Assembly: GCA_021734995.1 (NCBI GenBank)
Contig: JAIPHX010000002.1
Coordinates: 16,189-80,188 of the forward strand
Origin: Minisyncoccota bacterium
GTDB lineage: Bacteria; Patescibacteriota; Minisyncoccia; Phycocordibacterales; UBA9973
Direction: 5' to 3'
DNA: 64,000 nt
Part shown: positions 8,904 through 35,272 of the stretch, in pieces
Layout: every line of letters starts with the position of its first letter
Position numbering within the stretch: the first letter of the stretch is position 1
The notes under the pieces: generated by a model
Database searches by the model: none
Told to the model about the DNA's origin: nothing
What the model saw: the letters and a program-made list of their open reading frames with translations, nothing else
Program-made: the position numbers and the translations under genes

Positions 8904-9227
8904 ATGAACTCAACTCATGTAAAAATCGTGGTATTCGTCCCAGAAACCCATACAGACATAGTTCGCGAAGCTATGGGTAAGGCTGGTGCAGGAAAGATTG
9001 GCAATTATAACTACTGCTCTTTCTCTTCAAAAGGTATTGGTCGTTTTAAACCTGAAGATGGAGCAAATCCCCACATTGGTGAAGTTGGAAAATTTGAAGA
9101 GGTTGTTGAGGAAAGAATAGAGACTGTCTGTCCAAGAGAAAAACTTCAGGAAGTTATATCTGCTATTAAGGATGTTCACCCTTATGATGAGGTCGCCTTA
9201 GATGTATATCTACTAGAAACTATATGA
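8904..9227 (+). CDS. NIF3 C-terminal-domain-like / PII-CutA-like small protein (COG3323-like)
   Basis: GAGKIGNYNYCSF..GIGRFKPEDGANPHIGE ... VHPYDEVALDVYLLE matches the NIF3/YqfO C-terminal domain consensus. Confidence 0.5.
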   Translation: MNSTHVKIVVFVPETHTDIVREAMGKAGAGKIGNYNYCSFSSKGIGRFKPEDGANPHIGEVGKFEEVVEERIETVCPREKLQEVISAIKDVHPYDEVALDVYLLETI

Positions 9228-9817
9228 TTGAAATTAAAGCACTATTTGGAATACTCTCATCATTCTTTGTTCTCATTGGAGGAATTCCATATCTAAAAGA
9301 TATTCATCAAGGAAAAGCACATCCACACGTGTTAAGTTGGCTTGGCTGGGCATTTATTACCGCACTTGGAGCAAGCGCAATGCTTGCCGAGGGAAGCACT
9401 TGGGCTGTAGCAATTTTGTTTGCAAACACTCTTTTGTGTTTGTTGATTGCTGGATACTCAATAGTTCGAAAAGTAGGTGTTTGGTCTACGGGTATATACG
9501 ATTTTATATTCTTCGGGTTTGGAATTATTGGTCTTGTTCTTTGGCAAGTTCTCAATATGCCAGTTATTGCACTTGTATGTGCAATCATGGCAGATCTTTC
9601 ATTTGGACTACCAACGATTATCAAAACTTATAAAGACCCTTCAACGGAGACTCCTTTTGTCTGGGCAACAGCAACAATATCAGGCTTGTTAAGCTTGTTT
9701 GCTGTTCAAAGCTTTGCCTTTCACGAAGTATCGTATCCTCTCTATCTTTTCATATATGACACTCTAGTATTACTACTTGTATTGAAAATAATTTACCGTC
9801 CAAAGAGCAATATCTAA
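9224..9817 (+). CDS. Hypothetical integral membrane protein
   Basis: Six predicted TM helices. Its start overlaps the upstream gene (ATGA). Confidence 0.4.
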   Translation: MIEIKALFGILSSFFVLIGGIPYLKDIHQGKAHPHVLSWLGWAFITALGASAMLAEGSTWAVAILFANTLLCLLIAGYSIVRKVGVWSTGIYDFIFFGFGIIGLVLWQVLNMPVIALVCAIMADLSFGLPTIIKTYKDPSTETPFVWATATISGLLSLFAVQSFAFHEVSYPLYLFIYDTLVLLLVLKIIYRPKSNI

Positions 9818-9849
9818 TTCCTACTGTGATACTCATAAGTAATTAAACA

Positions 9850-9880
9850 AAAAAGCACCTCTCGGTGCTTTTTTGTTTGG
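9850..9880 (+). terminator. Rho-independent terminator
   Basis: AAAAAGCACCTCTCGGTGCTTTTTTGTTT: a GC hairpin flanked by an A-run and a T-run, so it may be bidirectional. Confidence 0.7.
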
Positions 9881-9890
9881 TTTATTATTG

Positions 9891-10014
9891 AGCCCTTAGC
9901 ATAGGTCCAATACTAAAACATGTTGGCGCCGTCGCGCCTCCGGCTTTCTCATCTCCTATTCTCACGCAATGATGCTCCACTCGGACTGCATTTAGCAGTC
10001 CTCGCGGATCATTG
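9891..10014. other. GC-rich structured element A, abutting the tRNA-Ser 3' end
   Basis: Contains nested inverted repeats CGCAATGAT...ATCATTGCG and GGACTGC-TAAAT-GCAGTCC, plus a GGCGCCGTCGCGCCTCCGGCT core. That core is shared with element B at 25881-25975. It also contains CATCTCC, as at the tmRNA 3' end. Confidence 0.35.
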
Positions 10015-10101
10015 CGGAGACGCAGGGATTCGAACCCTGGAAGGTTTTTAGGCCTTACCTCGTTAGCAGTGAGGCGCTTTCGACCACTCAGCCACGTCTC
10101 C
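10015..10101 (-). tRNA. tRNA-Ser (anticodon GCU)
   Basis: 87-nt cloverleaf with acceptor GGAGACG/CGTCTCC, anticodon loop CUGCUAA, long variable arm AAGG...CCTT and T-arm CAGGG-TTCGAAT-CCCTG. Confidence 0.85.
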
Positions 10102-13497: not shown

Positions 13498-13557
13498 CCT
13501 AAAAAGTTAGATAAAATCTAAAACTGCCACAAAATCACAACCCCCTAAAACATTGTG

Positions 13558-13630
13558 TCCGCCCTCTTGGGTTCGAACCAAGGACACTTCGAGTATAAGT
13601 CGAATGCTCTACCAACTGAGCTAAGGGCGG
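13558..13630 (-). tRNA. tRNA with anticodon UAU (tRNA-Ile2-like)
   Basis: 73-nt cloverleaf. Acceptor is CCGCCCT/AGGGCGG, D-arm GCUC-AGUUGGUA-GAGC, anticodon stem UUCGA/UCGAA with loop CUUAUAC, and T-arm CUUGG-UUCGAAC-CCAAG. Body is Ile-like. Confidence 0.7.
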
Positions 13631-14310: not shown

Positions 14311-17300
14311 TTATCCTGCAATATCCACAGCAGGTAAATCTTTTTTCTTTAATTCTATACCATGAGCAACTAAAATCTTTTCATATTCTTCTTGTTCAAG
14401 AGTCTCTACTTCTATGAGTTTTTTAGCAATAGCATCTAAGGTCTTACGATTTTCAGTGAGAACTTTCTCAGCAGATTTTAATCCCCCATCTACTATTTTT
14501 GATATTTCATCATCCACCTTTGCTGAAACAGCTTCAGAATATTCTTTATCTCTGGAACCCTCCCAAGCAGAACCACCTCCAGATCCCACAAGCGCAATTG
14601 GACCTATTGCATCAGACATCCCAAATCTTGTAACCATTGCTCTAGCTACATTGTTGACCATTTGCAAATCACTAGAAGGACCAGTGGTAACATCTCCAAA
14701 CACCATTTTTTCTGCTACATATCCACCTAAAGACATCGCAATATCATCAAGAAACTCTCTTTTAGACTGAAGTCTTCTGTCTTCAAGAGGAAGTTTTAAG
14801 GTATATCCTCCTGCCCTACCACGAGCAATAATAGATACTTTGTGTACTGGGTCAGAAAAAGGCAATACTGATGCTACTAGCGCATGCCCTGCTTCATGAT
14901 ATGCAGTAATTTCTTTTTCTTTTTTTGAAAGAAGATGACTTTTTCTTTCTGGCCCAAGCATTACCTTTTCTATCGCTCGGATCAAATCAAACTGAAATAC
15001 TTTTTTACGATTTTCTCTTGCAGCCAAAATAGCTCCTTCGTTCATCAATGAATATAAGTCTGCTCCAGAAAATCCAGGAGTTCGCTCTGCGATAACTTTT
15101 AAATTTATATCTTCAGCTAAAGGTTTACTGTTTGAATGAATCTTTAAAATCTCCTCCCTGTCTGCTCTATCAGGTAGATCAAGAATAACTTTTCTATCAA
15201 ATCTTCCTGGACGAACTAAAGCAGGATCTAGTACATCGGGTCTGTTGGTCGCTGCCATTACTATGATCTTTTCATTTGGTTCAAATCCATCCATCTCTAC
15301 CAAGATTTGATTGAGTGTCTGCTCTCTCTCGTCATTTCCTCCACCAAAACCACCACCACGAGTGCGTCCAATAGCATCTATTTCATCTACGAATATAATA
15401 GCGGGAGCAGATTTTTTTGCCATTTTAAATAAATCTCTTACTCTAGATGCCCCAACCCCCACAAACATTTCTACGAATTCAGATCCAGACAAATGAAAGA
15501 ACGGGACACTCGCCTCACCCGCCACTGCGCGTGCAAGCATTGTATTGTGTGAAATAAGTCCATTTGAAATAAAAGAATGTGTTTTAGGAACAGTAAAATC
15601 ATAAACCCTTGCTTTATTATTGGTAATCTCTTTTACAGGTGAAAAAAATAATTTAGCTTCTAAAATTGAATTTAGATACTCTGTATTTTCATTATGAAAT
15701 CCCATCTTTTTACATCTGTCTAAAAACAATTCCAAAGAATTTCTACTGATCGTTTTTCTTGTCTTTACTTTATGAATTAACTTTGAACACCACTCATTGC
15801 TTAATTTTCTATCACTTAACTCTTTCCATGTGTCATGCACAATATGATGTATGTCATAAAATAAATCTATGTTTGTGTTTCTTTTAGTATGTAAAGACAA
15901 ATATTTATTCATTTCTTTTTGTTTTCTAGACAAACGAAATCCTACATTTTTAGAAAACTTTTCAAGCTCTACCCCAGAAACAGTAATCTCATATACATCT
16001 TTTAAATGACTATCATCTTTATGACGTTTGATTCTTCTTTTTGGTACAATACCCATATTCAAAAGTATTGCAAATACCTGATCAGATAATTTTTTACTTA
16101 CAGTTGAGTAGCCAAAAGAATATCGATGGAAATATCCATCTGAGTCAAATAATCCTTGCAAAAATGCAATTAAAACATGTTTTGGAGCTTGCAAAACAGA
16201 AGATGGAATAGCTTTATCATATGAGAGCAAGTAACTCATTCCCATCTCATATAAATCTTTTTTCATCTTCCAAGATGTCACTAAATGAGTAATACCGTCT
16301 CCTGCTAATCCTATATTAGTATCAGGATAATTTTCTGATACATAACTTTTAAAAGAACCTACTAACTCTTCATCTACAGAGGTAAAACCAATTCTACTAG
16401 CATGGCTTAAATTTCCATCACCTGTTAGGAGTCCCATAATATAAGCTTGGTCCGAAGAAACTTCTCTTGAAACACCATATACTTCTGTCCCAAATTTAAT
16501 AGCCACGTTGTCTCCTTCTTTTATTTCTTCTAATTTTTTAAACACGAGATCCCCTTTACTATCCATTACAATTACTGGATGTTCTGGTGTTCCCTCTAAA
16601 TCAACTCCTTGTTTTAAAGTAATCTTAAAAGTATTTTGTTCGCCCAAATCATACCAGTGAGAAGCCTCTTGGTCTGTTGTACGAGAACGAGTAACATCAA
16701 AAGTGGGCAATATTGCTCCTTTTACTGTGTGATCTTTTGGATTAACCCAAAAATATTTTGGGATATCTTTAATTTCAACCAACCCTTTATTTGTTAAAAC
16801 CAAAGAATCCCCTGTAATACATTTCCCTGTTCCGGGAGCCCCTGTAAGAATTACTCCTTTTGGGATTCTTGCTCCTATCTCAAGAAATTTTTTAGGACTT
16901 TTTAGAAAATCTACTATTTCTTTTAATTCTTCTTTTGCTTCTTTGCAACCCGCTACGTCTTTGAAAGTTACTTTGTTGTTTTTGTCATTAGGATCAGTAA
17001 TGCGAGCTTTGGATTGACCAAAAGTAAAAGCTTGCATCCCTGCGCCTTTTACTTGTCTTGATAAATACCAGAAAATAAAAATAATAAAAATAATCGGTAG
17101 TAAAAATGGTAAAATATTTAAAAGCCAAAATCCTAGACCGCTCTGATCTTTAATCTCAAGAGTAGTCCCTGCTAAAGCTTCTGCGCTTACGCCATAATTT
17201 GCTAAAGTCTCAGACAAAGATGACTCTACTTCTTTTTTTGCTTTCTTTACCTCTTCATTCTTGTAAGTCACAGTAATATCTCCTCCTGAAACTACAATCT

Positions 17301-17508
17301 TCTGCACTTCTCCTGCTGTAATAGCCTTTGCTAAGTCTGAAACAGGTATCTCTTCACTTTTCTTTGAAGAATTAGCGACAAAGAGATACAAAGCAGTAAT
17401 AATCATCAAAATTAAAATAACAGAGGCCATACTGCCAGATAATCCTGGGCCTGCATTTTTTTTTCCACCCTTCTTCCCCCCTTTTTTATTTAAAATATTA
17501 AAATCCAT
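14311..17508 (-). CDS. ftsH: ATP-dependent zinc metalloprotease FtsH, interrupted by an intein (precursor)
   Basis: Two N-terminal TM helices, AAA module (Walker A GAPGTGK|T split by the intein, Walker B IIFVDEID), HEAGH zinc motif and an FtsH C-terminus. The likely start is MDFNILNKK at 17508. The mature protein is about 639 aa. Confidence 0.9.
15544..16821 (-). mobile_element. FtsH intein (426 aa, with LAGLIDADG homing-endonuclease domain)
   Basis: Begins with Cys directly after GTGK and ends ...SHN, followed by Thr, the P-loop Thr. Internal LLTGDGN and [12 protein letters not shown] dodecapeptide motifs are present. Confidence 0.8.
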
Positions 17509-17570
17509 AGTTGCATTGTAGCATGAAAATTTATTAAAAGAAATTATAAAAATTATGCTAGAATAGCTAT

Positions 17571-18017
17571 ATGCCCAACTACGCAGAAAATAAAAAAGCA
17601 AGATTTGAATACGAGATTTTGGAAAAATATGAAGCTGGCATAGAGCTTACAGGAATGGAAACAAAATCCGTCCGACAAGGAAAAGCCTCTTTTGAGGGTG
17701 CTTTTGTAATTGTGCGTGGAGGAGAAGCTTTTTTAATAAATGCAAACATCACTCCTTTCCAACCCAAAAATGCTCCTGAAAATTATGATCCACTTAGAAA
17801 CAGAAAACTATTACTGACAAAAAAAGAAATCAGAGAGTTAGCTGAATCTGAGGCAAATAAAAGTTTGACAATAGTGCCTTTAACGATGTATAATAAAGGG
17901 AGAAAGATAAAGATCCAAATAGCATTGGTAAAAGGTAAGAAAAAATTTGATAAGAGAGAAACAATCAAAAAACGAGAAACCGATCGTATAATCAGAAGAA
18001 CTTTGAAAGATTACTAA
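17571..18017 (+). CDS. smpB: SsrA-binding protein SmpB
   Basis: 148-aa protein with RFEYEILEKYEAGIELTGMETKS. The start overlaps the ftsH promoter region. Confidence 0.85.
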   Translation: MPNYAENKKARFEYEILEKYEAGIELTGMETKSVRQGKASFEGAFVIVRGGEAFLINANITPFQPKNAPENYDPLRNRKLLLTKKEIRELAESEANKSLTIVPLTMYNKGRKIKIQIALVKGKKKFDKRETIKKRETDRIIRRTLKDY

Positions 18018-18041: not shown

Positions 18042-18437
18042 GGGGATGATAGGCATAGACAAGAGTCTTGTTTATCTGAATGCATGTCGAGAATGAACGT
18101 AATCTCGCTAAACTTCGTTCAAAACGTTAATTGCAAAATTGACTTCAAAAGTAAAGGCAATCACTTCTCCATACTTCGGTATGCAGGATTTTGCTTTTGC
18201 TCCAGCACGCGCTTAAGTGGGCTGGTGTCTTTCTCGTAGACTTCCGATATACGAAGAGAGGCATAATATTATCGGGATAGGAAAAGAAACTTCCCACTCT
18301 TCTTCCAAAACTTAGGGAATCGTTTGAAAAATATTTTGCTTACTTTATAATTTTTCAAACTAAACATAAGGTAAGACACACATGTAGAAATTCAAATATC
18401 AACCTTTTGCACGGGGATTCAATTTCCCCCATCTCCA
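18042..18437 (+). ncRNA. ssrA: tmRNA (ssrA)
   Basis: Lies immediately downstream of smpB. The 5' GGGGAUG pairs with the 3' CAUCUCC to form the acceptor stem. The T-arm is GGGGA-UUCAAUU-UCCCC, with discriminator A. A candidate internal tag ORF ends at TAA (18214-18216). Confidence 0.7.
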
Positions 18438-19962
18438 CATCAAGGGTATGACCAGCCTCAATTCGGTCAAATAGCTTATAAAGACAGGACTTTTCAGGGG
18501 TTCGATAACCCATTTCATGTACAAAGACAATTTTGTCATCAAACATGAAAGAGAAAAGCTCCTGTTTTTGCTTTACGGTCCCTTTTTCCCATATTTTATA
18601 AGGGCTTTTTATCATGCCCGTTATCTGATCATACGAAGTTCGATAAGGAATAACGTAGTCAATTTCTTTACCTAGTTTTTCCTCTATTTTCTCTAACTCA
18701 ATAGATTTTTCTTCAATTCTTTTCTGATAGCTTCTTTTCACTATCAGATTTTCTATTCCAATCGACTCATCTGCCAAACCGCCGATCTCCTCTTCAAGTT
18801 TACTTTTCTGTTTAATTAACAATTCCGATTGTTTACCAATTCCTTTTATTTCGTCATTCCATAAATCTTCAAACATCATCCCAACAATACCCACTAAGTC
18901 TGATTTAGGTTTATTATCTTTTACAAGTTTCTTAAATCCATCATCAATGTCCTTTTGCTTCACAGTCTTACTTCTCAATGCACACGATCGATACTGACAT
19001 GAATAATACGGGTGACGCTTACCAGTTTTACTTCTAGAATAATAAGCAGTCATCTTTCTGCCACATTCTGAACAGCAAACTAATCCTCTTAATGGAAACT
19101 CTTCTCGGATATCTTGCCTGATTACCGCATCTCTAGCTTCGCCATTAATTCTTTTCACATTTGCAAAATAAACCTCTTCAGAAATTACACCTTCGTGTTT
19201 GCCTTTCTGTCTTCTTACATCCCACTTCTCATATTCAATAAAACCAGCATAAAAAGGATCAAGAAGAAGTTTCTTTGTTGTCTCTAAGTATTTCTCAGCG
19301 TGACATTTTTTAGAAAAGAAACCTTTCTCCTGGAGAAATCTAGCAAGATCGATAATCCTTACAAACCGCTTATAGGCAAAACCTTCTAAGCCTTCCTTTA
19401 AGATTAATCCTGCACTATTTGGAAAACATGTGTTTCCATATTCAGTTCTACGCATCTCATAACCTTTAGGGGCATGGAAAGCCCAATAACCCCTCTCTAG
19501 ACGAGCCTTTTGCTTTTGAATAACTTGTCTCTTGTTCTGGTTCCTTTCAAGCTCTGCTCCTGCGGCAAGTATCACTTCTACATACTGACCTTCAGGACTT
19601 TCATCAAAGCTGAAATTCAAACACTCAGGCACAATCCCTCGTGTTCTAAATGCCGTTCTAAGTTTTAAGTGGAACTCGACATCTCGAGCAAAACGTTTAA
19701 GATTGTCAAAAACAACAACGAAATTATGATGAGGTTTTGAGTCTACGTATTCAAGAAGAGATCGCATTGCTGGTCGTGCCATAAAGTCTCCTCCACCTGT
19801 AAAGCTATCTTTAAAGACCTTTGTAGGCTCGCCATACCCCCTATTAACACAATAAGTGCGACATCTCTGTTCCTGAGACTCTAAACCACCACCTTCACGC
19901 ATTTGGCGCTCTGATGAGACACGGCAATATATGATTGGTATTCGTTTAATTTCTTCTTTCAT
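18355..19962 (-). CDS. Large serine recombinase (integrase)
   Basis: N-terminal resolvase catalytic domain (YCRVSSERQ), a recombinase domain and a Zn-ribbon (CSECGRKM...YYSCQ) with a coiled-coil C-terminal region. The last ~27 codons overlap the tmRNA 3' portion. Confidence 0.85.
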   Translation of the reverse strand: MKEEIKRIPIIYCRVSSERQMREGGGLESQEQRCRTYCVNRGYGEPTKVFKDSFTGGGDFMARPAMRSLLEYVDSKPHHNFVVVFDNLKRFARDVEFHLKLRTAFRTRGIVPECLNFSFDESPEGQYVEVILAAGAELERNQNKRQVIQKQKARLERGYWAFHAPKGYEMRRTEYGNTCFPNSAGLILKEGLEGFAYKRFVRIIDLARFLQEKGFFSKKCHAEKYLETTKKLLLDPFYAGFIEYEKWDVRRQKGKHEGVISEEVYFANVKRINGEARDAVIRQDIREEFPLRGLVCCSECGRKMTAYYSRSKTGKRHPYYSCQYRSCALRSKTVKQKDIDDGFKKLVKDNKPKSDLVGIVGMMFEDLWNDEIKGIGKQSELLIKQKSKLEEEIGGLADESIGIENLIVKRSYQKRIEEKSIELEKIEEKLGKEIDYVIPYRTSYDQITGMIKSPYKIWEKGTVKQKQELFSFMFDDKIVFVHEMGYRTPEKSCLYKLFDRIEAGHTLDVEMGEIESPCKRLIFEFLHVCLTLCLV

Positions 19963-20058
19963 AATCCTCGATTTCTTCTTTTATTACCTTCTGTATCAGA
20001 GCTTCCAGATAACTCACAGTTTTCACTGCTTCCTCTCGAGTTAGATGAAGTTTCTTCA
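19945..20058 (-). CDS. Small ORF (37 aa) overlapping the recombinase start
   Basis: Encodes MKKLHLTREEAVKTVSYLEALIQKVIKEEIEDYERRN. Its stop overlaps the first codons of the recombinase. The role is unknown; a directionality or regulatory factor is possible. Confidence 0.2.
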
Positions 20059-20176
20059 TGCATAACTCAATATATTTTTCTTTTACCACAAGCCATTTGC
20101 TGTGGTTTAGCTCTAGTGCATCTAGCGACCTTACCTTATTTCTTATTTAAAACGTCTGAGGCATTCAGTACGTTGG

Positions 20177-21061
20177 TTATGGTTTTTCCATAACATCTGT
20201 CTCTACCGACACAAATTTTCCATCTTTTATTTGGAATGTAATGCTTCCAAATTCTCCTCCATTCTTAACAATTTCTCCCAAGACTTTGTAAGGGTTAGGA
20301 TTATTCTCAATATCCTTTTTAGATATATGACTTACAATTCCATTTTTAAATTTAATGGTTACGGCTTTATATTCACCGGACCGAATAATATCGAGAACAG
20401 AAAGCTCCTTGTCTTCAAGGTATGAGGGGATATTTTCTTTCGAAATCAAATCCGCCTTATCTTTAAGGAAACGATTTTTAATGATATTGAAATTTATTTT
20501 TATATAGTTAGAGTCGATATATCCAACCAACTCAGAAAAATCAATTTCATCTCTAGTACCCACATCTGCCCTACCGTCAGGAGCAACAATCATGAAAAAG
20601 TCTTTGTCTTTCTGAATGAATGATCTCAATAAATATGTTTCGAGAATAACTGCATTTGAATTTTTAAAAAATGACTCCTTTGTAGTCTTTATATTTTCAA
20701 GAGGGACACCAAAGCGTCTAAGTTCCATAGCAATTTGAAGCCAAAACAACTCTAAAAAGCTAAGCATTGTAGTTGCATTCTTTTCTCGTGTATCAAGTAG
20801 CCCAGCTTGTTTCCAATGACTTAAAACTCGGCGATTTATTTTCAACTCTGACGGTTTAAATTTCTTTTCTCGGACCTTATTCAGAACAGGCTTTTTCTCA
20901 CCTCCAATCATTCCTAAAACTAGGTAACTAAAACCCGATCTTATGATATTAAATTTAGGCAAATTTGATGTCGCTTTCATGTTACATAAATTGTAACACA
21001 TCTGTAACATAATAAAAATACCCAACCTGTTTGTAACTAAGGCAAATGGTACATCCTCCAA
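20177..21061 (-). CDS. MerR-like HTH regulator with unknown C-terminal domain
   Basis: SELKINRRVLSHWKQAGLLDTRE...LSFLELFWLQIAMELRRFGVPLENIK resembles the MerR N-terminal HTH and dimerisation helix. The C-terminal ~180 aa is unassigned. Confidence 0.45.
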   Translation of the reverse strand: MEDVPFALVTNRLGIFIMLQMCYNLCNMKATSNLPKFNIIRSGFSYLVLGMIGGEKKPVLNKVREKKFKPSELKINRRVLSHWKQAGLLDTREKNATTMLSFLELFWLQIAMELRRFGVPLENIKTTKESFFKNSNAVILETYLLRSFIQKDKDFFMIVAPDGRADVGTRDEIDFSELVGYIDSNYIKINFNIIKNRFLKDKADLISKENIPSYLEDKELSVLDIIRSGEYKAVTIKFKNGIVSHISKKDIENNPNPYKVLGEIVKNGGEFGSITFQIKDGKFVSVETDVMEKP

Positions 21062-21089
21062 CCTCCCACACTGTTTTTCACACTGTTTT

Positions 21090-21310
21090 TTGATATCTTT
21101 CGAGTTTCTTTCGATTATTTTTGTGCTTTGCTGTTTTTTGTTTTGTCGAGTAAATGTCGAGTTTTTTGCTTCGTTTCGATTTTCTTTCGATTATTTTATA
21201 TTAATTGACCCAGTTTTTACCGAGTATTTTTATTTAACTTTTCTGAAACTTTCGGTTTTCTTTCGGTTATTTTTTGCTTTTTGTCGATTATTTGTCGATT
21301 TTTTCAATTT
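21090..21310. repeat. Iteron-like array of degenerate direct repeats T(T/G)TCGA(T/G)T(A/T)TTTT (about 12 copies)
   Basis: Examples: TTTCGAGTTTC, TTTCGATTATTTTTG, TGTCGAGTAAA, TGTCGAGTTTTTTG, TTTCGATTTTC, TTTCGATTATTTTAT, TTTCGGTTTTC, TTTCGGTTATTTTTTG, TGTCGATTATTTGTCGATTTTTT. All lie in the intergenic or promoter region of the MerR-like gene. Confidence 0.6.
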
Positions 21311-21983
21311 AAGAGATTGCGATATCTATGTTTTTGATACCACTAAAGTCGAGAGGATTTTCTACTTTACTCAAAATAAACAGATTTACATTCCAAATAT
21401 AAGGATTAGCCACAGTAAAGATCGATGACTTTTGTCTGCCTGTAGTTGCAATCTCAATAGCATCAGAGTGCATCTTTATCTCTATAATCTTTGAAAGTGG
21501 TATGACTCGATTTTCCATAGTGCCCCTGAATACGAGCTTTTTGTTTGTAATTATCAAGTCTCCACTTTCTACCGATCTAAGCTCCTGATTGCTCTCAGAT
21601 TGCCCCTTATAGCCTCCCACATGCACACCTTTCATAACTCTGAAGCCAATCCCTAAACCTACTGAATTCCTAATAGATTTTGACTCCATTAAAACAGTGT
21701 TTTCTTTCAAAAAAGCGTACTCATCTTTTTCTAATAAAAGCGAAGTTGAGATAGGTTCGAGTTTCTTTTCTAACTTGATCTTCTCGACCAGATTTCGAGC
21801 CTCATCTTTCTGTTGCTGATCTACTAGCGCCTTGTTTTTAACACTACCTTTCTTCGATCCATACCAGAATAAAACGATACCTGCAATCAAACCGAATACA
21901 CCAAGAGCGGGATCGATGACCGAGGATATCAACCATATACAAACGGCAATAAGTGCCAATTTGGTCTTACTTAAATTTTCCAT
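21309..21983 (-). CDS. Membrane protein with bacterial PH (bPH_2-like) domain
   Basis: Two N-terminal TM helices. C-terminal LIITNKKLVFRGTMENRVIPLSKIIEIKM...IEIATTGRQKSSIF matches the bPH fold profile. Confidence 0.5.
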   Translation of the reverse strand: MENLSKTKLALIAVCIWLISSVIDPALGVFGLIAGIVLFWYGSKKGSVKNKALVDQQQKDEARNLVEKIKLEKKLEPISTSLLLEKDEYAFLKENTVLMESKSIRNSVGLGIGFRVMKGVHVGGYKGQSESNQELRSVESGDLIITNKKLVFRGTMENRVIPLSKIIEIKMHSDAIEIATTGRQKSSIFTVANPYIWNVNLFILSKVENPLDFSGIKNIDIAIS

Positions 21984-22002
21984 TTTTGTAGCGAGTTTTT
22001 AT

Positions 22003-22140
22003 TAATAAAATACTTTTGGGCAGACAAAAAGCCCGCCGCCAAGCTGATGGTCCGAGGACCACCCATGCCCGTTTCCAGACATGACTCGCTACAAGCAACC
22101 CTGACGACGGGTTCTTTATCTTGTAGCGAGTTTTGCAACC
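22003..22140 (-). ncRNA. GC-rich structured leader / putative small RNA upstream of the bPH gene
   Basis: The ACTCGCTACAA motif occurs three times, twice direct and once inverted, so two mutually exclusive 11-12-bp stems are possible. There are additional GC hairpins (GGTCC..GGACC, GGGC..GCCC). GC content is far above the local background. Confidence 0.3.
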
Positions 22141-22210
22141 ATATCCTTTTGTGTTTACACAAAAGGGGTTAGGTCGACTGATATTCAGTTGTAATTCTAT
22201 TTTAACATAA

Positions 22211-22564
22211 TTACGACCAAATTCTATCGGTAAGTTCTTGCGTTAATATACCTAAACTTGTACCAGTAGTATCAACAACATTTATAACAATCATGTCAAA
22301 AACAAATTTACCAGTATCATTAGTAATCAATTCAACATAGAAAACGAGATCATAAACTTCTGGCAGATTACGAGAGTAGGTTTTCCCGTCCAGTTTAGTT
22401 TTTATTTGTATAAACTTTATGTTTCTTCCTTTAATCGCAATTAAATCATTACCACTATCTTTTATTGGTGGCGCGGCTTGAATACCAAACTCAAGAAGCT
22501 GTAACTGTGAGAATATTTCTCCTATTGCTCCCACGTATGTTGTTTTTGGTAGAGGATTTCCCAT
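22211..22564 (-). CDS. Small hypothetical protein, possible PD-(D/E)xK-like fold
   Basis: 117-aa protein. GNDLIAIKGRNIKFIQIKT resembles a D...(E/Q)xK core. It is the last gene of the defense operon. Confidence 0.25.
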   Translation of the reverse strand: MGNPLPKTTYVGAIGEIFSQLQLLEFGIQAAPPIKDSGNDLIAIKGRNIKFIQIKTKLDGKTYSRNLPEVYDLVFYVELITNDTGKFVFDMIVINVVDTTGTSLGILTQELTDRIWS

Positions 22565-22582
22565 ATGTATTAAAGGAACTTT

Positions 22583-24328
22583 TTACTTATCGTAGTCAAC
22601 TTCAATATCAAGACCGAGCAATTTCTCTTCTGGTGAGCCATCCTTTAGGGCAAGAACTTCTTTACTTTCAATATATTTGATCTCGTCTGCTGAAAGATAT
22701 TCTTGGTTCTTAATTTGATCCAAAAAGTCTTGGTTGATTGTGAGAATATACTGAAGATTATTTTCCTCACAAATCTCAGAAACAAGTTTTAGGAATACTG
22801 CGACTTGTCTAGCATCTGTGTCACTAAGAATACGGCTGTCATGCGCCAAGAACTTTATGCCATGATTTGTCCCACCCATAACAAAAATAGTTAGATCGAA
22901 GCAAAGCATCTTTACACCAGCTATTCCATCCGAACTGTCATATTTGATGCGAGCATCCAGGTCAAATTGAGTTTGGTTATCTTTTGTATTTTCTTTAACG
23001 GTAATACCTGCGGTGGAAGATGGATAAAATGTTTCAGAAAGTTTAGTAAAGAAAGCATTATTTTTTTCATTCAAAGTGTCAACACTCAGCTTATAATCCA
23101 GCGCTTCTTTTTCTGCTTCTGCTCTTTCGATTTTAATTTCACTCTTTCTTTTCTTATTGTGATCAATGAGATTTTTGTACCTCTGTAATGACTCTAGTTC
23201 TTCTTGGGCTTGAGTTTTTTGTTGCACCAAAACAGAATAATCTTCCAGGGCACCGCCACTTCCTAACATACGAAGATAATCATCAAGCTCTTTATTTTTT
23301 AAAGAAAGACTGCCTTTTATCTTTTTTATTTGAGGTAATAATTCCGCTTTCTGTTTATTGAGTTGAGTAACTCGTTTGGTAGTTATTTGATTATGGAAAG
23401 ATAGAGTGTCTTTCAGGTTTTTCTTTAAAAGTTCAGGAAATTCAACAGATACTTTCTTGTACGCTAAAAGTACCTGATTTTTTTCAAGATCAAGTGGTAC
23501 AGCATTTTCAATTGTCTTATTTATATTTTGTAATCTCTTTTCAAGAATGAGTAATTCATTGATCAATGATTTTCGCTGATAGGATACCTGATCAGCTTCA
23601 CTTTGAATTTGTCTATTATTTTCTGCAATTTCATAATTCTTCAATCCGTTTTCAGCATCTTTAATCTTCACTCTGAGCTCTCTGAGTGCAATATCGACAT
23701 CGCTGTATTTAAGGAGAATACTCCTTACCTCATTGTCTTTATCAAGGGCATCTAAAACCACCTTTATCTTGTCAGCTTCTTCTTTAAGAACTTTCTTTTT
23801 AACTAAGTAATCAATATCAAAACCCAATAAATAGAAATTATTTATCAATTTCTGAAAAGGTTTTTCTCTTAAAAATACAGTATCCCAACTTACATAGCTT
23901 TGTTTCTTGGCACGCAAAAACCTATTCATTATTGTGCGGTAGCTGATATAAGGGTACTTACCTAGGTCAATATTAAAAAGCATCTCCTCCATTCTTTTAT
24001 TAAAAAGATCGAGTGATAATTCTTCTTCATTTAAATAAACTCTGTTTGTTTCCTCAGCAGGTCTTCGAACGGTGTAAGTCTTTCCGTCGTGTTCAAAATC
24101 AAGATAAAAGACCCAACCTTTTAGGCTATTTTTAAAAGCGTTATTATCTGATCCAAGACAAAAATCTATTATTGAGAGAAGAAGACTTTTACCTACTCCA
24201 TTAAAAGTTTTAGTGGTTGATTTGTCTTTGGGGTCTTTTTTTCCACCAAAAATAATATTCAAACTATCCGTTTTGAAGATGACGGTCTTAAATGTATCTT
24301 TGTTTGAATAAACTTTTAATAATTGCAT
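22583..24328 (-). CDS. SMC-like ABC ATPase with central coiled coil (LmuB/ABC-3C ATPase-like)
   Basis: N-terminal Walker A (FNGVGKSLLLSIIDF), a long coiled-coil middle region and a C-terminal Walker B/D-loop (MLCFD..FLAHDSRILSD). Confidence 0.6.
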   Translation of the reverse strand: MQLLKVYSNKDTFKTVIFKTDSLNIIFGGKKDPKDKSTTKTFNGVGKSLLLSIIDFCLGSDNNAFKNSLKGWVFYLDFEHDGKTYTVRRPAEETNRVYLNEEELSLDLFNKRMEEMLFNIDLGKYPYISYRTIMNRFLRAKKQSYVSWDTVFLREKPFQKLINNFYLLGFDIDYLVKKKVLKEEADKIKVVLDALDKDNEVRSILLKYSDVDIALRELRVKIKDAENGLKNYEIAENNRQIQSEADQVSYQRKSLINELLILEKRLQNINKTIENAVPLDLEKNQVLLAYKKVSVEFPELLKKNLKDTLSFHNQITTKRVTQLNKQKAELLPQIKKIKGSLSLKNKELDDYLRMLGSGGALEDYSVLVQQKTQAQEELESLQRYKNLIDHNKKRKSEIKIERAEAEKEALDYKLSVDTLNEKNNAFFTKLSETFYPSSTAGITVKENTKDNQTQFDLDARIKYDSSDGIAGVKMLCFDLTIFVMGGTNHGIKFLAHDSRILSDTDARQVAVFLKLVSEICEENNLQYILTINQDFLDQIKNQEYLSADEIKYIESKEVLALKDGSPEEKLLGLDIEVDYDK

Positions 24329-24567
24329 AAATGTAAATTGAAATTCTTATCGACCTCTACTGCACCAAAAGAATAGAGTAAGTCTAAGGCTAAAACAAAA
24401 TTTTGATGATTGTGGTAACTTGGACAGCGTTTAGTATTGTTGACAGCACTAAACTTTACCCAAAGCCCTTCAATTGAAACTGGTTTATCCAGTAATTCAA
24501 TAAGAACCCCAGAAAGTCCGAATATTGAGTCGTATAAACTAACATGTTTTGATGGAAAAATTATCAT
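24316..24567 (-). CDS. Small middle component (83 aa) of the ABC three-component system (LmuC-like)
   Basis: Small helical protein whose coding sequence overlaps both neighbouring genes. Its position is typical of an ABC-3C/Lamassu middle component. Confidence 0.4.
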   Translation of the reverse strand: MIIFPSKHVSLYDSIFGLSGVLIELLDKPVSIEGLWVKFSAVNNTKRCPSYHNHQNFVLALDLLYSFGAVEVDKNFNLHLCNY

Positions 24568-25499
24568 TTTGGTTCTTTGTATATATCACAACTTTCAAAG
24601 TAAAGCGCCATGAGGCTCAGTGCCGCTTTTCTTATCGCTGGCTCCATCATGCTATGAGATGAACTGCAGGTAAGAATGTCAAAAAATATATTGTCGGAAC
24701 ACTCCTCGTCTGCAGGCTCTCCATATTTTTTGACTGCTGAATTATATAGATGAGTAAATTTCTCTTGCAGTTCTTGTTTCAGCTCTTTATCGTCTATTTC
24801 TGAGAAATATTTTTCTACCTCTGATATGTTTTCATAATGCTTCTTCAGCATTTCGGTTGAGGATGCACTTAGGTGGTTAAATGCAATTTTTTCTTCGAAA
24901 TCAGGTGCGATAAGCTTGGCGCTTACATCATCAGGAATTTCCAATGATTTAAGATGTTCAGCAACAATATTCAGAGACTCGTAACTTAGTATTGTCTCGT
25001 CTGAATTTAAATGCAAAATTTCATCTTGTTTTTCTGGAGATAACTCTCTAAACATTCTTTGCAGATCATCAGCGTTGAATAGGTGAAATTTGATCTCAGA
25101 ATACTTTTTAGTTTTTTGAAGTTTGCTTAAAGCGCTACGTAGATCAGGATAAGCACCCTGAAACTTATCGTTAAAAGCAAAATAGAATTCCTTTATCGGA
25201 TCAATATCATTCCAAAACTTGTAAAGACCACCGAAGTCAGTGATCATTTTCTCTACCGCTTTTTGAGCGTTCTCTTTGGGATTTTCTGGGGAATAAACTT
25301 GATAAAAAATCCCTTCACCTTCTCTGTAGCCATCATTCTTCTTATCTCCCTTTGAGCCTTGTGGTTTAACCTTTTTAAAATTAGTGAAAGCAGAAGTAGC
25401 AACCTTCCAGAATAAATCCTGAAATGCTTGGGCATTGGCTTCGGTGATTAAGCCTCTCAAAATTTTTCCTGATATACGTTGATATTCAATCTGGTTCAT
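24564..25499 (-). CDS. Putative effector component (LmuA-like) of a Lamassu/ABC-3C-type system
   Basis: 311-aa protein. The N-terminal GDKKNDGYREGEGIFYQVYSPE region resembles a restriction-endonuclease-like core. It is the first gene of the operon and overlaps the next gene. Confidence 0.4.
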   Translation of the reverse strand: MNQIEYQRISGKILRGLITEANAQAFQDLFWKVATSAFTNFKKVKPQGSKGDKKNDGYREGEGIFYQVYSPENPKENAQKAVEKMITDFGGLYKFWNDIDPIKEFYFAFNDKFQGAYPDLRSALSKLQKTKKYSEIKFHLFNADDLQRMFRELSPEKQDEILHLNSDETILSYESLNIVAEHLKSLEIPDDVSAKLIAPDFEEKIAFNHLSASSTEMLKKHYENISEVEKYFSEIDDKELKQELQEKFTHLYNSAVKKYGEPADEECSDNIFFDILTCSSSHSMMEPAIRKAALSLMALYFESCDIYKEPK

Positions 25500-25834
25500 G
25501 CTCTTACTATTTTATCAGAAAGTAACATACAAAGAAATGCTTTGAACAGTTGATTGAGTACTTTTTAAATCAACGAACTAGTAAGAGTAACTTGTTCGTA
25601 TTCTCTATATGAAATCCAAGGTCGCTATACAACCCAGCCCAGTCAAAAGTTCGAAATCATACCTCCAGACGAGTAAAGACTCAATACTCAACCTTATATT
25701 CAATACTAGGATTGTGCCTATTAATTAAAAATTAATTATTGTAAAACAACATTTAAATTAGCGTTCTGTGGATCATTAAAATATTGATACCACTGATACA
25801 TAAAGCTTTTTATAGAGTTCAGTAGATTTCGGCT

Positions 25835-25846
25835 CATCTCCACATC
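25835..25846 (+). repeat. Third, degenerate copy of the tmRNA 3'-end core (CATCTCCACATC)
   Basis: Matches 18429-18440 exactly. The flanking sequence GATTTCGGCT resembles the tmRNA T-arm 3' strand AATTTCCCCC. Confidence 0.5.
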
Positions 25847-25852
25847 GCTCTG

Positions 25853-25880
25853 AAAAACTGCCTTAATGGCAGTTTTTTGG
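25853..25880. terminator. Bidirectional rho-independent terminator
   Basis: AAAAACTGCC-TTAAT-GGCAGTTTTTT. Confidence 0.6.
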
Positions 25881-25975
25881 TGCGACTGTGGTGCACAAGT
25901 GGGAAATTGAATAGCCGGAGCGCGACGGCGCGAGGCGGGGTCGCGGGTTTTGCCAGTAGGCAAAAACCTGTGACT
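25881..25975 (-). other. GC-rich structured element B (homolog of element A), adjacent to the distal att repeat
   Basis: On the minus strand: GGTTTTTGCC-TACT-GGCAAAACC, CGCGA-CCCCGCC-TCGCG, then GCGCCGTCGCGCTCCGGCT (shared with A), then ATTCAATTTCCC (identical to the tmRNA T-loop region), ending ...GCACCA before the terminator. Confidence 0.35.
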
Positions 25976-26002
25976 CATATTTCCCCCATCTCCACAAACA
26001 AC

Positions 26003-34687: not shown

Positions 34688-35272
34688 TTATTCATCTACT
34701 CCAAATCTTTTGTAATCATATACTTCAGATTCTCCAAACCAATGCTTGATCTCATGCTCTGCTTCTTCAGGAGTCTCGGAACAATGCACAATATTCATCA
34801 CTGCTCTTTTTTCTTTGTTGGCTAGTGCGGGTGAATCAATAGAAAAATCTCCACGGATAGTCCCCATATCTGCTTTGTAAGGCATTGTATCCCCTGCAAT
34901 TTTCCTTACTACATCTACTGCGTGTACTCCTTGCACTACCATCTTTACCAAAGGAGAGCTTGCCATATAGTCTATAAGCCATTTGCGAATCTCTGGGCCA
35001 ATTTTTGCTGGTTCTATTGTCCCAAAATCTACCATTGCATCATAGCCATACTTTTCATAAGTAGATAAAGTTTTGTTACCAAGACGAGTGATCCACTCTT
35101 CATTTTTTGGATAATGATCGTTTATTTTGTCATGCGCAGGATTAAACATTTCAAGAGCTACAATCTTAAGATCTCTTTGCTCAAAACGTCTAATAATCTC
35201 GCCTGTAAGCCCCTTACGGACACCGTCTGGCTTTATCATCACATATGTTCTTTCTTCTTTAGGATGTTTCAT
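34688..35272 (-). CDS. ndk: Nucleoside diphosphate kinase (with insertion)
   Basis: ERTYVMIKPDGVRKGLTGEIIRRFE and the catalytic-His region NIVHCSETPEEAEHEIKHWF. The likely start is MKHPKEE. It carries a ~40-aa insertion relative to canonical Ndk. Confidence 0.75.
   Translation of the reverse strand: MKHPKEERTYVMIKPDGVRKGLTGEIIRRFEQRDLKIVALEMFNPAHDKINDHYPKNEEWITRLGNKTLSTYEKYGYDAMVDFGTIEPAKIGPEIRKWLIDYMASSPLVKMVVQGVHAVDVVRKIAGDTMPYKADMGTIRGDFSIDSPALANKEKRAVMNIVHCSETPEEAEHEIKHWFGESEVYDYKRFGVDE

Follow-up and report, generated by a model that had tools for sequence, protein, structure and literature searches.

A structured element family behind tRNA and tmRNA genes of Patescibacteria, possibly spread by gene-restoring insertion

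Introduction

Genomic islands and prophages of tRNA and tmRNA genes, bounded by attL and attR, leave a direct repeat of the 3' part of the gene that begins at the T-loop or at the extreme 3' end, and the insert supplies a new 3' part that keeps the gene intact. T-loop and 3'-end 'sublocations' for integration into these genes were reportedly distinguished by Williams in 2002. Here we describe E, a ~65-nucleotide (nt) structured non-coding element whose units share this layout and likewise lie behind tmRNA besides tRNAs. Two copies, segments A and B, are found in a 64,000-nt stretch of a Minisyncoccota bacterium (assembly GCA_021734995.1, positions 16,189 to 80,188 of contig JAIPHX010000002.1). 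This whole stretch is referred to as the window, all coordinates are window positions, and L-numbers denote loci retrieved from genomes and metagenomes.

E units also resemble other described systems. Like repetitive extragenic palindromic sequences and bacterial interspersed mosaic elements with their REP-associated tyrosine transposases (REP/BIME-RAYT), and like miniature derivatives of the insertion sequences IS200/IS605, they are short, non-coding and multi-copy and carry strand-specific hairpins (a left hairpin or the unit X-loop-X' described below, and the hairpin P3 on the right). They are mostly placed behind genes, occur in clusters with nested or tandem copies, and may have a short conserved motif in the left flank. 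The likeness to integron attC sites and to the attP hairpin of CTX phage is that function would need a one-strand fold and that the stem of arm and repeat mimics the target duplex. With group I and group II introns and IStrons, E units share a guide-like arm pairing with both sides, a bulged-A hairpin near a 3' AC, and a host gene that is spared. Finally, serine-recombinase islands at ssrA, the tmRNA gene, with a repeat of ~20 nt are known in Dehalococcoides (PMC3146451). The window holds a 7.4-kb island of similar appearance, with a recombinase gene adjoining ssrA and a short repeat of the ssrA 3' end.

Results

Segments A and B had been singled out in a preliminary description of the window as GC-rich, hairpin-filled homologs lying at the 3' ends of tRNA-type genes. 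Indeed, only five 60-nt peaks of at least 58% GC occur in the 64 kb; they include A together with the adjoining tRNA-Ser gene, B, which is the highest of all (68%), and a LOOT RNA. Both segments fold better than their shuffles on either strand (z −4.7 to −7.3). A search of the window for the 12-mer GCGCCGTCGCGC, with up to one mismatch, found matches confined to 9926-9937 (+) and 25920-25931 (−), with an expectation of 0 in 100 dinucleotide-preserving shuffles of the window. The full common core is AGCCGGAG(G)CGCGACGGCGC, at 9925-9945 of A read on the − strand and 25913-25931 of B read on the + strand, with a single indel between the copies, and a fainter similarity reaches ~12 nt further upstream. 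The homology of the two segments is thus real in the core, but sharing is limited to the first third of the element, since A lacks the second hairpin and the repeat.

We use the name E for the constant ~65-nt part and define the family by a covariance model, R1, which was built from a MAFFT alignment of 39 copies. At E-value <= 1e-8, R1 collected 71 copies from 52 sources, including diverged copies that lie outside the search pattern. E consists, in this order, of an A, the short hairpin P2 (GCC / G-GA / GCGC-GACG-GCGC / GA / GGC), a G, and P3, a hairpin of 16 bp that contains a conserved G·U pair and a bulged A and has the 3' end ...GUGAC. Matches from the Candidate Phyla Radiation (CPR) all extend the core identically, as AGCCGGAGCGCGACGGCGCGAGGYGGGGUCG followed by a variable stem with the loop AGCA and by ...GUGAC.

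The fold is supported by covariation, which the preliminary description had proposed as a check once homologs were collected. In the 39-copy alignment, 15 of the 16 P3 pairs show changes on both sides. Among the 71 R1 copies, double (compensatory) changes occur in 21 of 23 pairs and 97% of cells are paired, a level reached in 0 of 500 shuffles and compared with 36-52% in slid controls; this alignment is fitted to R1 and its pairing somewhat inflated, and the 39-copy MAFFT alignment is concordant with it. The lower helix of P2 exists as GCC:GGC, GGC:GCC, GAC:GUC, AAC:GUU, ACC:GGU and UUC:GAA, and across these variants the GGAG/CGAG internal loop is unchanged. Its layout, a C-stem GCC/GGC, a 1-nt bulge (G) and G-A opposite G-A, is invariant in the 71 copies and looks like a kink-turn with a one-base bulge.

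At one P3 pair, 54 of 64 copies have G·U; three further pairs contribute 21, 10 and 7 more. On the opposite strand these conserved pairs would be A·C mismatches, which confines the fold to the displayed strand. E therefore has its fold on a single strand, the one that is sense for the adjacent tRNA or tmRNA gene, namely the − strand for A and the + strand for B. There is moderate support for a short closing helix around E, in that the 4 nt before E pair with the 4 nt after it in 67% of cases, compared with 52% in shuffles and 22-41% in slid controls.

Copy B is a complete T-loop-type member of the family behind tmRNA. R1 matches it at 25906-25983 with 89.1 bits (E-value 2.8e-27). Its core comprises A25913, P2 at 25914-25936 (GCC-G-GA-GCGC-GACG-GCGC-GA-GGC), a GG linker at 25937-25938, and P3 at 25939-25975 with the bulged A and the loop AGUA. 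The arm that precedes the core contains a diverged tmRNA 3' end in inverted orientation (25891-25912; reverse complement ATTCAATTTCCCACTTGTGCACC) and, at 25881-25889, a second GGTGCG motif. The inverted repeat joins 18412-18438 with 25891-25917 over 27 nt at 78% complementarity, in agreement with the inverted tmRNA-like piece that had been noticed in B. The direct repeat ATTTCCCCCATCTCCACA covers, in its upstream copy, the tmRNA from the T-loop to the 3' end; a looser form of the downstream copy begins at 25975 (TCAT...).

Copy A is a truncated, decayed Ser-type member of the family. It adjoins the 3' end of tRNA-Ser(GCU), as had been stated, and the suspicion that the tRNA-Ser copy is decayed also proved right. 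R1 gives it 15 bits (E-value 0.0056) and matches P2 alone. The remnant AGCCGGAGGCGCGACGGCGCC, 21 nt of E, contains the 5' strand and the upper hairpin of P2. In the alignment, copy A parts from complete Ser-type copies after GGCGCC, inside P2, and is without the P2 3' strand, the entire P3 and the direct repeat. The adjacent tRNA-Ser still scores as a normal tRNA though two thirds of E are lost. Its arm, UGAGAAUAGGAGAUGAGAA, is an imperfect complement of a tRNA-Ser 3' part, with counterparts in the arms of complete tRNA-Ser and tRNA-Trp copies (L082, L005, L052, L066 and L088). The motif CATCTCC, which had been taken for a piece of tmRNA, is the reverse complement of this arm and mirrors a tRNA-Ser-type 3' end. 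Between tRNA and arm lies the hairpin H0, whose basal pairs recruit the last two tRNA nucleotides and which has a symmetric tandem G·A internal loop; RNAalifold on nine loci finds 19 pairs, 10 of them with compensatory changes. The terminator-like hairpin beyond A closes both the tRNA-Ser/A unit and a + strand open reading frame (ORF) at 9224-9817. A further R1 search of the window returned only 35154-35239 (E-value 0.17), which lies inside a coding ORF and was judged to be chance. The features of both copies and of the island between tmRNA and B are collected in Table 1.

Table 1. Features of copies A and B and of the neighbouring island in the window
Feature	Position	Strand	Basis
Terminator-like hairpin, bidirectional	9845-9878		Scanner call on both strands; folds
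E remnant of copy A, AGCCGGAGGCGCGACGGCGCC	9925-9945	-	Covariance model R1; alignment; core search
Arm X' of copy A, UGAGAAUAGGAGAUGAGAA	9946-9964	-	Aligns with arms of complete copies
Hairpin H0 of Ser/Trp-type element	9965-10016	-	RNAalifold; single-sequence fold; alignment
tRNA-Ser(GCU), gene preceding copy A	10014/10015-10101	-	ARAGORN; Rfam tRNA, 57.8 bits
tmRNA (ssrA), gene originally preceding copy B	18042-18440	+	Rfam RF00023, 116.9 bits
Large serine recombinase (Resolvase and zinc-ribbon domains)	18355-19962	-	Pfam
18-nt direct repeat ATTTCCCCCATCTCCACA, upstream copy	18422-18439	+	blastn; exact string search
12-nt island repeat CATCTCCACATC	18430-18441 and 25835-25846		Repeat positions
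Island, a later insertion	18442-25834		Pfam; repeat positions; absent from L124
Terminator-like hairpin, loop of X-loop-X' unit	25852-25878		Folds; consensus scanner made no call
Arm X' of copy B	25881-25912	+	Inverted-repeat search; family-wide arm analysis
Complete E core of copy B	25913-25975	+	R1 match; covariation
18-nt direct repeat ATTTCCCCCATCTCCACA, downstream copy, displaced tmRNA 3' part	25979-25996	+	blastn; exact string search

The range of the family was examined in GTDB, with one genome per species and the exact 19-nt core pattern, and in metagenomes (JGI and others) with a 30-nt version of the pattern; each scan gave at least 120 loci. Among the GTDB matches listed, low-GC genomes give ~50 loci, and every taxon-labelled one is from Patescibacteria (Saccharibacteria, Paceibacteria, Nomura-, Kaiser-, Yonath-, Taylor-, Campbell- and Tagabacteria); a few are labelled merely 'bacterium'. 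The remaining GTDB matches listed are in high-GC genomes and were discarded as chance. The core family is thus kept across Patescibacteria relatives, conservation on which the preliminary description had made its proposal depend. A viral origin of E was rejected on a core-pattern search of IMG/VR, which returned two high-GC chance matches only, with no tRNA.

E is tied to tRNA-type genes. A co-oriented tRNA or tmRNA gene lies no more than 200 nt upstream in 33 of the 49 GTDB matches listed, mostly at 11-120 nt, and in 66 of the 108 assessable metagenome matches listed (~61-67% across both sets). At least 17 tRNA isotypes have E behind them, in addition to tmRNA, and consecutive tRNA genes may each bear E within a single 8-kb locus (L062, L092, L078 and L115). 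This supports the earlier view that A and B represent one family of structured elements associated with tRNA-type genes at their 3' ends.

A typical unit begins with the tRNA 3' part, X; a loop and an arm, X', that complements X come next, then E, and finally X again as a direct repeat. The loop between X and X' is often a terminator-like hairpin, and in tRNA-Ser and tRNA-Trp copies it is replaced by H0, a conserved 50-nt hairpin. Arm X' can pair alternatively with the upstream X, forming the hairpin X-loop-X', or with the downstream repeat, forming the short closing helix. In 45 of 62 anchored copies the complement of the arm has its start at T-loop U54; in another 16 it starts 3-7 nt short of the tRNA end. 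The direct repeats measure 10-23 nt and begin at C56 or near the 3' end; T-loop copies take up the repeat at C56, immediately behind GUGAC, and continue it as far as the end of the tRNA.

No tRNA lies within 200 nt of ~40% of the assessable copies, and most such copies bear another conserved left hairpin with the loop GCGAAUACUUGGAGC. Of 126 copies of all types, 79% have a G immediately 5' of the left hairpin (−1) and 71% have one at −2. IS200/IS605 derivatives insert 3' of a fixed tetra- or pentanucleotide without duplicating the target; here the left flank is rich in G but shows no fixed word, in T-loop copies it is set by the tRNA itself, and the repeats may represent either carried copies or duplications. 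Repeats carrying a CCA that the gene lacks were considered as a sign of an RNA intermediate; they occur at few loci, the difference in the L037/L080 pair amounts to a single substitution, and the idea was dropped.

Related arrangements were also seen. In L078 (3075-3487, − strand), a tRNA-Leu(UAG) gene is followed by a hairpin, a complementary arm and a direct repeat around a different, ~95-nt GC-rich core that R1 does not detect; from this layout the E-like family is probably wider than R1. In L092 (1482-1720), tRNA-Leu(UAG) is followed by three tandem 38-nt units that repeat its last 13 nt (CTCCTCGCCCACA) without E, which shows that duplication of a tRNA 3' end occurs without E too. A second conserved motif, ACWG-NN-CCUGUAAGG-NN, lies in non-coding DNA near E in L030, L038, L039, L064, L080, L113 and L115, and CGAUAAGCGUNCUCGCGG follows it in L030 and L124. 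The motif is possibly a further repeat or RNA module in these genomes.

Several loci look like the outcome of insertion. In L062 (7653-7830) one copy is nested inside the P3 of another, after GGG, and the outer P3 and its repeat resume beyond the inner copy. L072 has a tandem E pair with a 62-nt repeat, and L069 holds up to 6 copies in 8 kb, some of them degenerate. In both L007 (963-1100) and L200 (1200-1400), a second 5S rRNA gene copy is split by an antisense E at the same position, beside an intact 5S gene. Presence also varies between related genomes: tRNA-Ile(UAU) of the window (13557-13630, − strand) is without E and its orthologue in L124 has it, and four genomes differ in E presence within a Cys/Leu/Lys/Leu tRNA cluster. 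Contigs of metagenome-assembled genomes (MAGs) often end inside E, and those of L001 and L002, same-strain Logan contigs, end in tRNA-Ser or E (L002 at 25955), as expected for a repeat that exceeds the assembler k-mer.

The family appears to be undescribed, without a match in Rfam 15 or a description in the searchable literature. At gathering threshold, Rfam 15 finds in the window only the tmRNA, LOOT and two tRNAs, none of them over A or B; scans of the A and B regions at E-value <= 10 gave chance-level matches only, and a scan of 15 further loci at gathering score found nothing overlapping E. Signal recognition particle RNA, 6S RNA, RNase P, hepatitis delta virus-like, hammerhead, twister and hairpin ribozymes, and group II domains V and VI were considered on visual inspection and discarded. 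The searchable literature, queried also with the core sequence as text, held no account of the element.

The island next to B is separate from E and later. L124, a MAG labelled Saccharibacteria, is syntenic with the window (recG, tRNA-Ile(UAU), ftsH, smpB and tmRNA); its tmRNA is directly followed by a terminator-like hairpin, the arm and E, and there is no island. The window minus 18442-25846 is collinear with L124, including the hairpin at 25852-25878, and the island repeat CATCTCCACATC lies within the older 18-nt repeat found on both sides of the small element. From this comparison, the 7.4-kb island was inserted between tmRNA and the hairpin of B after E was there, and this hairpin had followed tmRNA directly before. 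E is present without the island in all other examined loci.

The island itself has further features of note. Its recombinase ORF crosses CATCTCCACATC and ends antisense within tmRNA (overlap 18355-18440). After excision, the predicted circle would encode a different 32-residue tail in place of the last 24 residues (535 versus 543 amino acids), so that integration would alter the recombinase C-terminus. A LOOT RNA (RF03000, 79.8 bits) at 22046-22175 (−) lies between small ORFs, and the cargo at 22583-25499 (−) is an ABC-three-component (ABC-3C) defence operon with DUF2326, MC6 and CTD10 domains (Pfam). The intergenic stretch 21086-21312 contains four to five iteron-like copies of TTTCGATTTTCTTTCGATTATTT at 76-nt spacing, which may be a replication or regulatory site. 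Elsewhere in the window, FtsH (14311-17601, −) contains an intein with a LAGLIDADG homing endonuclease; the FtsH of L124 has no counterpart of ~15543-16816.

Discussion

We favour, with moderate confidence, the view that A and B are two copies of a CPR-wide non-coding family of gene-restoring miniature insertions in which E serves as a single-stranded DNA (ssDNA) handle. The unit X-loop-X'-E is inferred to be a non-autonomous miniature mobile insertion that carries no gene. It would enter tRNA-type genes, occasionally 5S rRNA genes or its own copies, just 3' of a G-rich motif. The insert would bring a replacement 3' part, leaving the gene intact and the old 3' part behind as the direct repeat. 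E would be the cis-acting handle for machinery encoded elsewhere, with a strand-specific, hairpin-recognising enzyme acting on ssDNA, as for IS200/IS605 miniature derivatives and REP/RAYT. Hairpin ends, strand specificity and nesting make the ssDNA route the most likely one, and an RNA-level route, intron-like or retro-copying, is ranked weaker.

A number of observations weigh against gene-restoring insertion. ORF clustering over 51 loci found housekeeping families only, with no transposase, integrase or reverse transcriptase recurring near E. An IS200-like Y1 transposase, searched with an IS200 TnpA sequence as query, was present in 1 of ~240 loci (L240, 4391-4980), ~230 nt downstream of an E copy; it is flanked by CCCCGCGG-CUUG-CCGCGGGG hairpins that are unrelated to E. 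Such enzymes do exist in these bacteria, as this gene shows; the test for a linked Y1 transposase failed, and we therefore do not claim membership of E in IS200/IS605 or REP. No pair of empty and filled sites that would fix the insertion boundaries was found, look-ups with SmpB and the phosphoesterase returning only the same strain and flanks across species being too diverged. Mismatches between arm and target comprise 36 G·U and 40 A·C, and without wobble bias the arm yields no strand or RNA-level signal. Many copies lie downstream of a terminator-like hairpin, which makes their transcription from the tRNA promoter uncertain. Finally, distant CPR classes share ~33 nt of the core almost unchanged, and the diverged tRNA-Ile copy of L124 has six changes in P2, all of them structure-preserving. 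Maintenance of P2 by compensatory change, together with the near-invariant core, is the pattern expected of a host-useful RNA selected at each locus rather than of decaying selfish copies. Signs of insertion and of per-copy selection both fit an element that spreads through its own fold.

The main rival, which we consider possible but clearly the less probable account, is a fixed host-beneficial cis-acting RNA in the tRNA or tmRNA 3' trailer that spreads only by ordinary duplication and recombination. It could act as a processing, termination or stability signal, as a protein-binding kink-turn-like module, or through its arm as a guide pairing with the tRNA 3' part. The box C/D guide within the archaeal pre-tRNA-Trp intron is a precedent for a guide that pairs with its own tRNA. 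A host RNA would account for the sense orientation that linked copies always have behind tRNA-type genes, P2 loops and P2/P3 junctions that hardly vary between CPR classes, compensatory changes among the diverged copies of a single genome, the lack of a nearby mobile-element gene, and Ser/Trp-type copies that have the covarying H0 and no terminator between tRNA and E. It is at odds with the ~40% of assessable copies that have no tRNA within 200 nt, with nested and tandem copies and antisense 5S insertions, with presence that varies at equivalent tRNA genes of related genomes, with the normal score of the tRNA-Ser next to truncated A, and with the many copies placed after a terminator-like hairpin. 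An RNA-mediated mobile element, minimal intron-like or retro-copied, is improbable. Its arm would be an internal guide to the 5' part (P1-like) and the 3' exon (P10-like), which agrees with the alternative pairing of the arm. Group II introns have domains V and VI, a 5' GUGYG and an encoded reverse transcriptase; P2 starts with AGC and the bulged A of P3, 8 nt before the 3' AC, recalls group II domains V and VI; the bulged A and the ...GUGAC end are conserved, and the targets (tRNA, tmRNA, 5S) are abundant structured RNA genes. A length of 65 nt, however, is far under any known self-splicing core, antisense 5S insertions cannot stem from reverse splicing into 5S rRNA, no reverse transcriptase was found nearby in the 51 loci, and Rfam gave no group I or group II match for A and B (E-value <= 10) or the 15 further loci (gathering score).

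Two explanations from the preliminary description fare worse than these. That A and B are independent small RNAs, each running on the − strand towards its own terminator, is very improbable. Either strand folds better than shuffles and both segments have a terminator-like hairpin next to them; the one beside A was called on both strands, but the one beside B, though it folds, was missed by the consensus scanner. If A and B were each transcribed towards their own terminator, their 20-nt cores would be mutually antisense and not homologous RNAs. Conserved G·U pairs and the orientation of the family set the structure of B on the + strand, which points away from the hairpin and has it upstream of B, and B folds better on this strand (−73.4 versus −59.9 kcal/mol). 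We give still less credence to A and B as remains of attachment sites for the large serine recombinase of the island, tRNA-Ser being a second integration site that has decayed. B does lie at the distal island boundary beside the ssrA 3' repeat, and the Dehalococcoides islands at ssrA offer a parallel. In L124, E is nevertheless in place without the island, and the 12-nt repeat of the island is a separate one, lying within the older 18-nt repeat. A tblastn search with the window recombinase against ~50 Patescibacteria loci, a set apart from the 120 metagenome loci, found only two same-strain contigs. Sites of large serine recombinases are double-stranded, span ~40-50 bp and have imperfect inverted half-sites around a central dinucleotide. 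A and B do not fit this description: the inverted arm lies ~60 nt from the repeat with a 63-nt folded core between them, the flanks of the 18-nt repeat at B, read by eye, have no inverted half-site symmetry, and conservation is structural and strand-specific, in covarying hairpins unlike the double-stranded sites of these enzymes.

A separate and rather doubtful proposal gives E the role of scaffold in a programmable system guided by nucleic acid, in which the adjacent arm would pick a tRNA-type gene or RNA by base pairing. The arm would direct insertion at the T-loop or 3' end, or guide tRNA processing or modification, and the effector would be a ribozyme activity of E or a putative CPR protein binding the kink-turn-like hairpin. 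If true, this would be a new class of guide-directed element in very small bacterial genomes.

Patescibacteria represent a large share of bacterial diversity, and their non-coding repertoire is almost unexplored. Short and extremely conserved, E appears to be among the commonest repeats behind their tRNA genes. It breaks metagenome assemblies, in that contigs end inside it, creates partial tRNA-like fragments able to confuse tRNA annotation, and may pass for a genomic-island boundary, as B did. A 65-nt module between a complement and a copy of its target would be either a new route of damage-free insertion or a new cis-acting RNA of tRNA trailers.

How E differs from the systems it resembles can now be stated. 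E inserts measure only ~95-170 nt and encode nothing, unlike tRNA islands, and no recurrent recombinase family accompanies them in the 51 loci. They have a phylum-wide, strand-specific covarying fold and an arm complementary to the target, and the GUGAC adjacent to the repeat is unlike a core-type integrase site mirroring the T-stem. The Dehalococcoides precedent (PMC3146451) accounts for the island of the window and not for A or B, E being older here. Compared with REP sequences and IS200 miniatures, E has no linked Y1 transposase in ~240 loci, the sole IS200-like gene having hairpins of its own. A REP is usually confined to one species, whereas copies of E from different CPR classes are nearly identical; REPs are also not tRNA-specific and carry neither copy nor complement of their target, unlike E units. 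Hairpin sites of the attC and CTX attP kind differ in that no evidence of an integron integrase or Xer emerged for E, that E, unlike attC, is strictly conserved in sequence, and that its targets are tRNA genes. E is ten-fold too small for an intron or IStron, has no Rfam intron match and includes antisense insertions, and it spares the host gene at the DNA level through a duplicate 3' part, not through splicing. A kink-turn consists of a C-stem, a 3-nt bulge and tandem sheared G·A pairs and is bound by L7Ae-type proteins; the kink-turn-like P2 has a 1-nt bulge in this place. Taken together, the comparison suggests that E is related to gene-restoring, tRNA-targeted insertions or to hairpin-based miniature repeats.

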